A stretch of DNA of 64,000 nt, from assembly GCA_049852185.1 (NCBI GenBank), contig CP187540.1; one strand, given 5' to 3'. Source of the DNA: Methanocaldococcus sp. 28A. Its GTDB lineage: Archaea; AGJL01; Methanococci; Methanococcales; Methanocaldococcaceae. The notes under the pieces were generated by a model that saw only the letters and a list, made by a program, of their open reading frames with translations, searched no databases and had not been told where the DNA came from. Made by a program: the position numbers and the translations under genes. Shown here in pieces: positions 11,736-64,000 of this stretch. Numbering within the stretch: position 1 is the first letter of the stretch; each line of letters begins with the position of its first letter.

Positions 11736-11941
11736 GATACTCACCAAAAATTATAAATAGGTCTTTTGTGAATGTTCATTAAAAGCGGATATATTTTTAT
11801 TTAATAATTATATACAATAAAAAGATTTCCCTTAAGCTTCATTTATTCAAAATTTGAAAAATATTATAAATAATAAATAATAAAAAAATAATAAAAACCA
11901 AAAGCCAGGTCTCTTTGGACTGGCGACCATCGGGTGATAGA

Positions 11942-12403
11942 ATGGCAAGAATGCATGCAAGAAAAAGAGGTCGCTCCGGTTCAAAGAGACCCGTCAGGAA
12001 AGAAGTTCCTGAATGGGTCCAATACACACCGGAGCAAGTAGAGCAGTTAGTAGTAGAGTTAGCTAAGAAAGGTTATCAGTCAGCACAGATTGGTTTGATA
12101 TTAAGAGATACTTATGGAATCCCAGATGTTAAATTAATAACAGGTAAAAAGATAAGCAAGATAATGAAAGAACACGGGTTATATCCAAAAGTTCCAGAAG
12201 ATTTATTAAACTTAATGAGAAGAGCTGTTAACTTAAGAAAACACTTAGAACAGCATCCAAAAGACTTACATTCAAAGAGAGGTTTACAGTTAATTGAGTC
12301 AAAGATTAGAAGATTGGTTAAATACTACAAATCAAAAGGAGTTTTACCAGCAGATTGGAGATACACACCAGAAACAGCAAGATTGTTGGTCGAGCAGGCA
12401 TAA
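11942..12403 (+). CDS. rps15: 30S ribosomal protein S15 (uS15)
   Basis: [17 protein letters not shown]...[23 protein letters not shown]; RBS GGGTGA. Confidence 0.98.
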
Positions 12404-25750: not shown

Positions 25751-25775
25751 ACAAATGTTTATAAATTTCATTTAA

Positions 25776-25862
25776 GGGGTTGTATCCGTTCAGCCCGAAG
25801 TTCAATGAGCCCACAGCAGAGGGAATTGTATTCCCGATGAATCTGTGGGTTAAGGACAGTCC
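25776..25862 (+). ncRNA. GC-rich structured RNA with K-turn upstream of rpl41e
   Basis: GCCCACAG-CA-GA-GGGAAU-ugu-AUUCCC-GAU-GA-AU-CUGUGGGU; TATA box TTTATAAA at 25758-25765. Confidence 0.65.
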
Positions 25863-25916
25863 ATGTTCTTCATGATTTTTATACTTAATCTATAAAAACA
25901 GGGAAACGGTGATACT

Positions 25917-44843: not shown

Positions 44844-45383
44844 TTATTCTTCTAAACATCTTTTATGTTCTTCAATATCAAAATCGATTTCATAATATTT
44901 ATAGATTTCATCTGCAAGGTTTTCAGCAAATTCCTTAGCTTTTTCTTTACTTTCAAACCCTAAAACCCAAATTCCCCACATTGTTTCCCAATTGGATGAG
45001 AGCTTACAACTCTCTTTTATAGGATTTTTTCCATTAAATTTGTGGATAACTATCTTTTTATTCTTCCAATCAATATATAATGCATAGTTTTCTCCTTCAA
45101 TGTTAATATTCTCTATGTTATCTCCATAAGCTTTATTTTTAACATTCTTTTCTAAGTAAATTTTAATGAATTTGTTTAATGGTAGTCTTGAAATCTTAAC
45201 TCTTACATTTTTTAACATCTCTTCTAATGCTTCCTCAATTTCCTCCTCCTCAATCCAATTTAAAGTTATTGGTGTTAAAATTGTTATATATCTATCTCCG
45301 TCTAGTTCTATATCTAAAATTTTTAAGTATTCATTATAAATGCCAAATTGCTGTAATATTTTTATTAGATTCTTCATATTCAT
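44844..45383 (-). CDS. Hypothetical protein translationally coupled to the HEPN-like gene
   Basis: 179-aa acidic ORF; ATGA overlap with the upstream stop at 45380-45383. Confidence 0.75.
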
Positions 45384-45679
45384 TCCCCTAACATTATATA
45401 AAGCTTTAAGAGTTTTTCAATAATTTCAAGCTTTTCAATAATGATTGCTATAAGTTGATTCTCTTTATAGCTATACAGTTCCTGCCTTATTATATGCAAA
45501 TAGTGAAAAAATTTTAATTTTAGATAGCTCTCTTTAAATTCCTCCCAATGTTCCTCATAATGCTTTCCATGCTCTAATCTTGGGGATAAAATATAATCAG
45601 ACGCATGCCTATAAAGCTTTAAATCCATCAAAAAGTTTCTAATCTTTTTGTTGAAATTTGCATATCTCTCTTTATTATG

Positions 45680-45967
45680 CCGTTTGAAATAGTTTAATTT
45701 TTCATATGCAAATATATACATTTATAGATTATCATTACCAAAAAGTTTATATGTGAATATATATAAGTTTTAAATAGAAATTATAACTGCCCCAAATGCG
45801 GGAGTGAAATGGAGTCCCAAGAGAGTAGTCATAGCCAAATTTTAATTGATGGAAGGAGCTGGGGTCCCCTCGACAGGGGCAGAGACCTAAGCCAATGAAC
45901 CCAGAGGGTTGATGACGCCCAAGTCCAACGTGGATTTATATATAATTGTCCATGTTGGACAGACCCC
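45680..45967 (+). mobile_element. Non-autonomous IS607/TnpB-derived mini-element
   Basis: CC at both junctions versus a single CC in the rebuilt empty site; TnpB-like remnants CPKCGSEMESQE and MEGAGVPSTGAET*; left end has a second copy at 63852-63905. Confidence 0.75.
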
Positions 45968-45985
45968 AATCTTCTATATTTTCTC
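45850..45985 (+). ncRNA. Putative omegaRNA (HgcC/sotRNA-like) with host-derived guide; limits approximate
   Basis: GC-rich hairpins CCCCU-cgac-AGGGG, AACCC-aga-GGGUU and GUCCAACGUGGA/UCCAUGUUGGAC overlapping the TnpB 3' remnant; upstream TATA-like boxes at 45740-45775. Confidence 0.6.
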
Positions 45986-46128
45986 TAATATAAAACTCAA
46001 ATGCATTTAGCAGATATAGCATTCCATAATAAAATCTTGACACAAAAGTTCTCAAATCAAATTCTTTTAATGCATTTATACAGCTATCTAAAAAATGAAT
46101 ACATTCTTTTAAGTATGTATTGTTTAGG

Positions 46129-47406
46129 TTATGCATTCTTTCCATCACCTAAGACATAAACTTTAAATCCTTCTTTTTCCCAAGCTGCCCTATTTATTAT
46201 ATTTTTTGTATCAAGGATTATTTTATTTTTTACTTTTGAGGCAATATTTTTAATATCTTTTTTATTAAAATCTTTGTATTCATTGTGGTCTGCCAATACA
46301 ACAATAATATCTGCTTTATCAACAGCTTCATCTAAACTACATAGTGGATAGATAAAATCTCTCGCATAGCTATCATAGCATTTAACTTCAAAACCATCTT
46401 CAATTAATTTTTTGACGACCTTTTCAGCAGGACTTTCTCTTGTATCATCTACATTTCCTTTATATGTTACTCCAAATATTGCCACTTTTCCAGTATCTTT
46501 TTTTATTATTTTTTTAATCTTCTCAACGACAAATAGTGGCATTGAATCATTTATTTCTCTTGCAGTTCTTATAAGCATAGCATTTTTTGATTTCTCTACA
46601 ATAAACCATGGGTCTATGCTTATACAATGCCCTCCAACTCCAGGACCTGGTTTTAAAATATTAACTCTTGGATGTTTATTAGCTAAGCTAATTGCTTCCC
46701 AAACATCAATGCCAATTTCTTCTGCAATTTTTGCAAATTCGTTGGCTAAGGCAATATTAACATCTCTATAAGTATTTTCCATTAACTTAACCATTTCTGC
46801 TGTTTTGGCGTCAGTTAAATATATCTTTCCAGTAACAAAGGTTTTGTAAATCTCTTTTGCCATCTCAGCAGATTTTTCATCAACTCCTCCAATAACTCTG
46901 TCGTTTTCAACCAATTCTTTTAATATATTTCCAGGTAAAACCCTTTCTGGACAGTGAGCTAAATAAATTTTTTTATCTTTTGATAAATTTTTATAAATAT
47001 CGTCAGTAGTTCCTGGGGGTATTGTACTCTCTATAATAATTAGATTTCCATCCTCAAGATAGGGCTTTATGTTTTCAATAGCCTTATGCAAATAGCTTAA
47101 ATCACATCTTTTTTCTCCATCACACTCTATGCAAGGTGTAGGTACACAAATAATATAAATATCTGCTTTATCTGGTTTTGTTTGCACTTTTAAATTTCCA
47201 GAGTTTATAGCTCCCTTAACTAATGTCATTAAATCCTTCTCTGTAGTTTTAAAGCTTAATTCTTTAATCTCTTTTACTCTTTTTTCATTAATATCTACAC
47301 CTATAACATCAAATCCATGTATTGCTAACATTGAAGCTGTAGGTAATCCTATGTAACCTAATCCAATTACACATATTCTTTTTCCATTATTATTTTTCTT
47401 TACCAT
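46129..47406 (-). CDS. wecC: UDP-N-acetyl-D-mannosamine dehydrogenase
   Basis: [41 protein letters not shown]. Confidence 0.93.
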
Positions 47407-63350: not shown

Positions 63351-63841
63351 GAGTGTGTCTAAAATCAAGTAATATTTTATATATTAATTTATATATTAAT
63401 ACTACAAAATAAAAAAATATGGTAACGAAAAGATGGAACTCTAAGATAGATAATATAAACGAGATATTAGAAGTTTTTGATGAGATTATAGAGGATATTA
63501 AATTCTTATGGAGAGGGATATTTTTATAATTATGAAGAATACGATGACAAGAATACATTAAATAAAATAGTTAAATTCAACTACAAGCCAATAATAAAGA
63601 AAACAAAAAGAGGTAGTAAGAGCTATGGTGCTAAAATTAGGGATAAAATCTTCGATAAAAAAGAATATAATAAAAGAGGAATATACGAGGGTTTCTTCGG
63701 AGCTTTAACCAACATATTCGGAGATAAATTGAATACTTTCTTAACTTCGATTTCTATTACTCGAATCGCTATCTGGGTTTGCATATATTCTTTAATCATG
63801 TTGCTGAGGTATCGTATGTAAGTCCTATTTTAGACACACTC
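63351..63841 (+). mobile_element. Internally deleted IS5-like element
   Basis: Perfect 15-bp TIR GAGTGTGTCTAAAAT / ATTTTAGACACACTC; remnant EYDD...KPIIK...FDKKEYNKRGIYEGFFGAL (YxxRxxxE motif). Confidence 0.8.
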
Positions 63842-63844
63842 CTC

Positions 63845-63903
63845 TAAATATTTATCCATAAATGTCTATCTTTGTCTATAAAAAATTAATCTGTTTCAAA
63901 CGG
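63845..63903 (-). mobile_element. Left end of a second IS607-like element copy
   Basis: 45/54 ungapped identity with 45678-45731; ATAGACA/ATAGACA/ATGGATA repeats at 10-bp spacing. Confidence 0.75.
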
Positions 63904-64000
63904 CAGTTTCTTTATCAAAACCATCAATTAATATATATTTAGCTCTACCATCAAGCATAGCCACATTATAAACCTTCTCAATAAACAAACTATCAGAGCT
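63896..64000 (-). CDS. 3' end of a gene entering from the window edge, apparently truncated by the IS607-like end
   Basis: [34 protein letters not shown]; the TGA lies inside the element end. Confidence 0.5.

Follow-up and report, generated by a model that had tools for sequence, protein, structure and literature searches.

A 286-bp miniature element in a Methanocaldococcus genome combines IS607-like ends with a conserved structured RNA

The window analyzed in this study is a stretch of 64,000 nucleotides from Methanocaldococcus sp. 28A (contig CP187540.1). It is AT-rich (31% GC), has the character of an archaeon of the Methanocaldococcus type, and carries an archaeal rRNA operon, an RNase P RNA and a C/D small RNA. 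Our analysis concerns a short segment at 45680-45967, referred to here as the mini-element, which adjoins proteins with 85-97% identity to Methanocaldococcus proteins. Two minus-strand open reading frames (ORFs) of 70 aa (45936..46148) and 113 aa (45380..45721) abut the mini-element. In silico deletion of 286 bp with retention of one CC fused both ORFs in frame to a protein of 160 aa that reads YIRENIEDW/HNKERYANF across the former insertion point. The C-terminal half of this host gene matched three intact proteins, namely P0005 (160 aa), which is MJ_0427 of M. jannaschii, P0006 (156 aa) and P0007 (159 aa). Both halves span these proteins end to end, in colinear order and with zero indels, and the intact orthologues show IEDWHNK at the join, where the Trp codon TGG includes the core GG. 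Since three intact orthologues could be aligned across the join without an indel, the empty site holds exactly one CC. The orthologous site is thus unoccupied in three other genomes. The junctions read TTATG-CC-GTTTGAAA (45675-45689) and CAGACC-CC-AATC (45960-45971). Both had been named, together with a single CC in the rebuilt empty site, in the original prediction for this locus, which was made from the bare sequence, and all of this was borne out. The 286-bp element is a precise insertion into the MJ_0427 orthologue at 5'-TTATG-CC-AATC, with the strand that encodes its RNA in antisense orientation to the host gene. The coordinates of all features are given in Table 1.

For annotation, the mini-element accounts for the split MJ_0427 orthologue. 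The interrupted gene terminates immediately at the start codon of the following ORF (179 aa, with a weak match to DUF7336; region 44844-46148, minus strand), an arrangement which suggests that both genes form a two-gene cassette inactivated by the insertion. The MJ_0427 orthologue is named a HEPN-domain protein by some sources; Pfam and NCBIfam gave no significant match for either half.

Table 1. Features of the mini-element, its host gene and the solo left end (window coordinates)
Feature	Position	Strand	Evidence or remark
Mini-element body, 284 bp (286 bp with one CC)	45682..45965	+	End-to-end alignment to six copies of 303-304 bp; removal restores host ORF
Left junction 5'-TG-CC: TG is flank, CC (45680-45681) is left crossover dinucleotide; target or TAM-like motif	45678..45681	+	G in 9/9, T in 7/9
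Left end, starting GTTTGAAA; 7-mers at 45704-45710, 45714-45720 and 45724-45730; proposed transposase binding sites	45682..45735	+	Register common to three lineages
TATA-like boxes TTTATAT (45746-45752) and TATATATAA (45758-45766); proposed archaeal promoter	45746..45766	+	Conserved block, columns ~88-112; putative role
GC-rich structured RNA domain abutting right end, in omega-RNA position	45788..45967	+	Conserved fold, 148.9 bits
Right-end hairpin, arms 45923-45934 and 45949-45960; inverted ATGGACA at 45947-45953 and ATATATA at 45937-45943	45923..45960	+	z -3.0 / -5.3
Right CC crossover dinucleotide, element end CAGACC-CC	45966..45967	+	Identical in 8/8 complete copies; next base A 5/8, T 3/8
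Right flank, putative guide portion if the RNA is an omega RNA	45968..45987	+	Position only; flanks unrelated among copies
Host gene, N-terminal part, MJ_0427 orthologue	45968..46148	-	97% identity to P0005, residues 1-60
Host gene, C-terminal part	45380..45679	-	94% identity to P0005, E = 1.3e-51
Solo left end, diverged family member, TG-CC-GTTTGAAA; motifs ATAGACA, ATAGACA, ATGGATA	63854..63905	-	84-85% identity over 50-52 bp

Further copies were sought by a single left-end pattern scan of genome contigs, in which each species was represented by one genome and the genome of the window itself was not recovered. The scan resulted in 10 loci, of which seven were miniature Methanocaldococcus copies from two metagenome-assembled genomes (MAGs) and three were bacterial (L002, L003 and L007); the latter are chance matches to the left-end pattern. 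Six MAG copies have a length of 303-304 bp and align with the window copy from the first to the last base. The locus L008 (2001-2111) is a micro-copy of 111 bp composed of about 53 bp of the left end and about 58 bp of the right end. It has kept the right-end hairpin described below and lost the RNA scaffold, and a 2-bp insertion moves its third left-end motif from position 45 to 47. This micro-copy is a candidate for a minimal transposase substrate or else a dead remnant. Divergent boundaries among the copies had been named as a result that would refute the original prediction; the boundaries proved to be the same in 8/8 complete copies, G/CC-GTTTGAAA on the left and GGACAGACC-CC/A or T on the right, with unrelated flanks. 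The right terminus of L001 is an exception, ending GGGCAGACC-CC instead of GGACAGACC-CC. The left boundary is also identical in the solo left end of the window.

The six copies of one MAG share 94.7-99.7% identity with each other and 74.6-76.8% with the window copy, which points to two diverged lineages, one with a recent burst. The flanks of the MAG copies encode mostly proteins with housekeeping roles (among others GHMP kinase, TrkA, PheRS beta, RNA cyclase, archease, CbiD and a glycosyltransferase), and also Cas1. At least three further distinct right flanks were found in the protein collection in the form of read-through ORFs (P0001-P0004), in each case following HVGQTP, i.e. CAGACCCC. These are predicted 'proteins' of 140-148 aa that start within mini-element copies (TGEETDDLLPMNPEG..HVGQTP) and continue into unrelated flanks; they are annotation artefacts produced by the element, which hereby explains these spurious entries in public databases. 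No ORF matching a protein family is present inside the mini-element, and BLASTN against plasmid and phage collections found no match to it. A literature search, which did not extend to the catalogues of insertion sequences and omega RNAs in supplements, revealed neither an account of this Methanocaldococcus family nor an IS607-type mini-element with a defined core, target motif and RNA. The transposon family is real and recently active. With eight complete copies of identical boundaries in unrelated contexts and three empty orthologous sites, the prediction of a mobile and non-autonomous element has been confirmed, and we regard it as virtually certain that the family comprises mobile, non-autonomous members of 286-304 bp and one 111-bp derivative.

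The insertion sites provide information on target preference. The base directly preceding the left CC is G at all nine left junctions, and the base before this G is T at seven of them. Only 750 of the 4737 CC dinucleotides in the window are preceded by G, hence the G before the CC reflects a real preference for a site 5'-TG-CC. The right CC is followed by A in five and by T in three of the eight complete copies. CC is found at both junctions in all of these, there is no target duplication beyond the shared CC, and the flanks of 8-9 copies have only TG-CC-A/T in common. The core is CC on the RNA strand and GG on the opposite strand; which end is to be defined as 'left' would depend on the parent.

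The left end contains 7-mers at element positions 25, 35 and 45 in the same register in three diverged lineages. These are ATATGCA (45704), ATATACA (45714) and ATAGATT (45724) in the window copy, ATAGACA, ATAGACA and ATGGATA in the solo left end, and ATAGATA, ATGAATA and ATAGAYA in the MAG copies. At the right end, two inverted 7-mers are located 15-21 and 25-31 bp from the tip (ATGGACA and ATATATA in the window copy, ATGGACA and ATAGAYA in the MAG copies). The three 7-mers at 10-bp spacing and the inverted ATGGACA had been noticed before and were recovered, the 7-mers at the same positions. The motif variant changes jointly at both ends, from the ATATAYA type in the window copy to the ATAGAYA type in the MAG copies, which is the pattern that a shared binding protein would produce. 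Pairs of ATAGACA-like motifs (at most one mismatch) with a spacing of 10 or 20 bp occur at only two places in the window, one of which is the solo left end. The first 24 bp of the left end are near-invariant across 9 sequences.

The statement that the element lacks terminal inverted repeats holds for the tips, with the exception of GTTTG and CAGAC, which match in 4/5 positions with a one-base offset. It does not extend to the subterminal regions, since the 25-31 sites of the left and the right end together make up an imperfect inverted repeat (13/16 in L010). As a result of the near-match of the tips, abutted ends would read CAGAC-C-CC-GTTTG, a near-palindrome around the core. These properties bear on the possibility of a classical miniature transposable element with inverted repeats (MITE) moved by a DDE transposase, in which 2-bp staggered cuts at CC leave the two CCs as a target-site duplication. 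A dinucleotide present at both junctions and once in the empty site is formally equal to such a duplication, and an IS5-type transposase remnant (NCBIfam transpos_IS5_2, E = 2.3e-4, well below cut-off) adjoins the solo left end. Terminal inverted repeats are missing, however, as the tips CCGTTTGAAA and GGGGTCTGTC agree only to the extent given above. Moreover, the 'duplicated' CC and the G upstream of it do not vary between sites, the ends are asymmetric with three sites on the left and two on the right, and the IS5-like remnant has no sequence in common with the mini-element family. Movement by a DDE transposase is therefore highly improbable.

In single-stranded form, the right end folds into a strong hairpin with z values of -3.0 (window copy) and -5.3 (L010); it is kept in 8/8 copies including the 111-bp micro-copy. 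Located 7 nt from the right tip, this hairpin would be the TnpA recognition structure if the family consisted of non-autonomous IS200/IS605 elements similar to palindrome-associated transposable elements (PATEs), moved as single-stranded DNA by a Y1 (HUH) TnpA and inserting 3' of TGCC; the element proper would then be 45682-45967. A conserved 4-nt motif directly 5' of the left end and the absence of a target duplication agree with such a mode of transposition. PATEs with omega RNAs are described for IS200/IS605 (PMC10055086), and according to PMC4615843 IS1341-type tnpB-associated RNAs (HgcC) were first found in M. jannaschii. The left end, by contrast, forms no hairpin in any of three lineages (z +0.43 in the window copy, -0.13 in a MAG copy and +0.83 in the solo left end) and contains nothing like the right-end structure. 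Y1 transposases, as in the case of IS608, recognize similar hairpins at both ends, and a left end without one disfavors a Y1 mechanism. In addition, an 8-bp AT palindrome seen by eye in the left ends of the MAG copies is lost in both window copies, whereas the phased direct 7-mers are kept. The motif TGCC is GC-rich, whereas the transposon-adjacent motifs (TAMs) of IS605 are characterized as TA-rich (10.1101/2023.11.20.567912), and HgcC gave no match to the mini-element RNA in an Rfam search at E up to 10. Altogether, a Y1-dependent element appears improbable.

An IS607 type fits the ends better than these IS200/IS605 or DDE alternatives. Judged by its ends, the family probably belongs to IS607, and we consider it rather likely that an IS607-type serine transposase is responsible for its movement. 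The structure of such a serine recombinase is known from M. jannaschii (PDB 3LHK), as reported in PMC6188088. According to the model favored here, a serine transposase (TnpA_S) encoded elsewhere in the genome would move the mini-element in trans. TnpA_S dimers would bind the three ATAGAYA-like sites at positions 25-51 of the left end, which are spaced by about one helical turn, as well as the two inverted sites 15-31 bp from the right tip, and thereby pair the ends. Strand exchange at the CC dinucleotide would then result in a double-stranded circle with the junction CAGAC-C-CC-GTTTG, which may reinsert at another CC, preferably with TG directly upstream. The retained cargo would comprise a promoter-like TATA block and a GC-rich structured RNA of about 180 nt.

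This RNA corresponds to a GC island at 45788-45967, in which the GC content reaches 0.43-0.62 (60-nt windows) in comparison to 0.31 for the window. The plus strand folds better than shuffled sequences (z -2.9; minus strand z -1.5). A consensus fold of the seven long copies contains 54 pairs in 8 helices, among them a 3' hairpin of 18 pairs and a long-range helix GGGGUC/GACCCC that uses the final six bases of the element. Pairing was found in 96.8% of the cells (307/317) for the plus strand, in 274/317 for the minus-strand reading, and in 36-50% for slid controls. Four compensatory pairs were counted, a value reached by 1 of 500 shuffles. The ratio of 38 G-U cells to 5 A-C cells points to the plus strand as the RNA strand. 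A covariance model built on the fold (R1) scored 148.9 bits at the island, and the scaffold stops precisely at the right tip. When the model was applied without filters to the window and seven loci, no additional copy was found. Two TATA-like boxes precede the GC-rich RNA by about 25-40 nt in a block conserved between window and MAG copies. Archaeal promoters generally contain TATA boxes, and this block may therefore serve as the promoter of the RNA.

Several side observations were made on this RNA. A conserved UGAUGA, similar to a C box, is located at 45910-45916 and at the same place in the MAG copies (L010 ~2246-2252). The latter contain GAUGA...CUGA around an extra stem extension of 8+8 nt that the window copy does not have. 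An interpretation of UGAUGA as part of a kink-turn, judged by eye, was dropped as unprovable; binding of L7Ae via kink-turns is reported in PMC3124441 for orfB-derived Pyrococcus RNAs. A group I intron was also considered and rejected, with no intron match in Rfam, an insertion antisense to the host gene and flanks that are not conserved.

With a start beyond the left end, an end at the right tip and a predicted continuation into the flank, the RNA is laid out like a TnpB omega RNA. It is quite possible, but by no means assured, that it serves as a guide RNA for a TnpB in trans. Since the 3' end of the RNA is the right tip of the element, transcripts would run into the flank. On this reading, the RNA would act as an omega-RNA-like guide for TnpB supplied in trans. 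TnpB would cut the empty site, i.e. TGCC followed by the right flank, and homologous repair would restore the element; the occupied site would be spared, as it contains CCCC in place of TGCC. Combining mover and cargo, the family may consist of RNA-only hitch-hikers that are moved by the serine transposase, with each insertion creating a new flank-derived guide for a TnpB-like nuclease encoded elsewhere. This nuclease would defend or re-home each copy by means of an RNA that joins an invariable scaffold to the flank-derived guide. The 111-bp micro-copy, with 53 bp from the left and 58 bp from the right end, would then represent the smallest natural substrate of the transposase. We put this combined scenario forward as a speculative and somewhat unlikely one.

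A number of results weigh against an IS607 derivative with a TnpB guide RNA. The left-end pattern scan returned miniature copies only and no full-length parent; for this reason the transposase is one that we infer. No transposase was found within 2 kb in 7/7 MAG loci, in which Pfam was applied to 29 out of 38 flank ORFs with a length of 90 aa or more (the 9 left out mostly lie inside longer ORFs of the opposite strand), and none was found beside either of the two window copies. Concerning the ends, a single left end exceeds shuffled sequences only modestly in its 10-bp self-similarity (p 0.005-0.02), and lags of 6, 8, 12 and 14 are also raised because the stretch is AT-alternating; the recurrence of the motif register in three lineages is the stronger argument. 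On the RNA strand, CC takes the place of GG as the core, and a conserved tetranucleotide at the left junction without duplication would also be expected of an IS200/IS605 element. With regard to the IS607 assignment of the original prediction, every tested end feature is in agreement, whereas a full-length relative with a serine-recombinase TnpA was not found.

The interior had also been proposed to retain scraps of tnpB, a claim for which no support was found. The only hint of tnpB comes from one frame of the window copy with a CPKCG motif, which is not conserved in the other lineage, where a 1-nt indel breaks the frame. When this frame of 43 aa was searched against 1.84 billion representatives, 9 matches were obtained, none of which contained the TnpB core family OrfB_IS605. 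The matches seem to be repetitive or similar to zinc ribbons, and one of them (253 aa) has a match below the Pfam cut-off to the Cas12f1-like TNB zinc-ribbon domain. In a word-indexed search the same frame gave zero candidates. The RNA region of a MAG copy, translated to 50 aa, gave 4 matches among 15 candidates; all 4 were read-through ORFs. Furthermore, the RNA had no match in Rfam at gathering thresholds, and at E up to 10 only chance-level matches were obtained (e.g. HgcG with 11.8 bits at a cut-off of 77). As only two diverged lineages are available, the covariation represents few independent events. In view of the core CC and of the missing parent and tnpB homology, the scaffold may be an undescribed class of archaeal omega RNA or serve a partner other than TnpB.

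The same results can be taken to indicate a mobile RNA-gene cassette, moved neither by TnpA_S nor by TnpA_Y, with an RNA that is not a TnpB guide and could serve a recombinase or the host. Neither a transposase nor TnpB homology is linked to the copies, Rfam offers no family for the RNA, the core on the RNA strand is not GG, and the RNA domain has been conserved although the lineages share only ~76% identity. On the other hand, a close IS607 precedent exists for each testable feature of the ends, and the missing parent is weak evidence, as it derives from one exact-pattern left-end scan with one genome per species. If the RNA acted like the bridge RNA of IS110-type elements, about 10 or more flank bases would have to be conserved for targeting, whereas the flanks share only TG-CC-A/T; an IS110 bridge-RNA element was excluded on this ground. 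We consider the RNA-gene cassette unlikely and retain the IS607-type serine transposase as the probable mover.

The solo left end of the window runs on the minus strand from 63905 to 63854 and shares TGCCGTTTGAAA exactly with the mini-element. A second right end was not present in the 64-kb window. Similarity ends after about 52 bp. The neighboring IS5-type remnant (63492-63821, plus strand) derives from the C-terminal part of the transposase, and the solo left end may have been truncated by this IS5-type insertion. Elsewhere in the window, a GC island of 92 nt (25775-25866, plus strand, GC 0.50) lies in a long intergenic region with a TATA-like TTTATAAA in front. It had no Rfam match at E up to 1 and is a candidate for an unannotated non-coding RNA. 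By eye it resembles the mini-element RNA; with 5.1 bits in model R1 the two are unrelated. A stretch of 157 nt with a GC content of 0.50 (11897-12053) overlaps the start of the ORF 11915..12403.

Elements of the IS607 family are hard to delimit because inverted repeats and target duplications are missing. A miniature family in combination with an orthologous empty site provides exact boundaries, the crossover dinucleotide and the target preference TG-CC, and the natural deletion series of 304, 286 and 111 bp gives an indication of the minimal ends. Provided that the RNA acts as a guide RNA, the lifestyle of PATEs, which carry only ends and a guide RNA and borrow TnpA and TnpB, exists on the serine-transposase side as well. 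As the host is a hyperthermophilic archaeon, the RNA scaffold would be heat-stable.

Comparable RNAs are described for other archaea. In Pyrococcus abyssi (sRk48, sRk52, sRkB and sRkC) and in haloarchaea (sotRNAs), RNAs stem from orphan orfB (tnpB) genes that belong to the IS607 or the IS200/605 type, of which they represent the 3' ends (PMC3124441, PMC4615843). As presented there, they are GC-rich archaeal non-coding RNAs at repeated loci like the RNA of our family, and they are transcribed. They match annotated orfB 3' ends, whereas the mini-element RNA has no detectable orfB homology and is situated inside a complete mini-transposon whose ends are defined. For Staphylothermus marinus, PMC2678158 describes about 14 MITEs of ~260 nt that disrupt ORFs and are linked by sequence to orfB elements of the IS607 family. 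According to this description, they resemble our family as short ORF-disrupting repeats of an archaeal hyperthermophile and differ from it in being flanked by inverted repeats and similar to the upstream region of orfB.

PATEs are characterized in PMC10055086 and PMC4615843 as gene-less IS200/IS605 derivatives, often with an omega RNA, that need TnpA and TnpB in trans. Going by these accounts, the fusion of a left and a right end without a protein gene and the structured RNA at the right end are common to PATEs and the mini-element. In contrast to PATEs, which have hairpins at both ends and depend on a Y1 transposase, the left end of the mini-element contains phased direct repeats and no hairpin.

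The closest resemblance of the ends is to the IS607 family. As outlined in PMC6188088, its members have no terminal inverted repeats and no target duplication, carry a dinucleotide at both termini and at the target, and contain short motifs in direct repetition as well as an inverted repeat of imperfect match close to the ends. In IS1535, four helically phased motifs begin 20 bp from the left end and two are located 10-28 bp from the right end (PMC6188088). The mini-element conforms to this description in the absence of a target duplication and of long terminal inverted repeats, in the fixed shared dinucleotide, in the imperfect inverted repeat near the ends, and in subterminal motifs spaced by about 10 bp that are more numerous on the left than on the right. 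It differs from IS607 elements in its size of 286 bp instead of ~2 kb and in having neither tnpA nor tnpB; in a non-autonomous derivative, a missing tnpB is compatible with IS607 descent. On the RNA strand, CC stands in the core instead of the GG described for IS607, ISC1926 and CboIStron, and the motif reads TGCC instead of TGGG. According to 10.1101/2023.11.20.567912, IS607 TAMs are G-rich and the motif is shared by transposase and TnpB. There, CboIStron, a member of the IS607 family, is reported to insert at 5'-TGGG, of which the last GG is the core and which also is the TAM of its TnpB, and to spare itself by a right end that reads TCGG. As far as these descriptions go, TGCC at the left and CCCC at the right junction of the mini-element parallel TGGG and TCGG of CboIStron, with a left tetranucleotide that overlaps the core in both cases.

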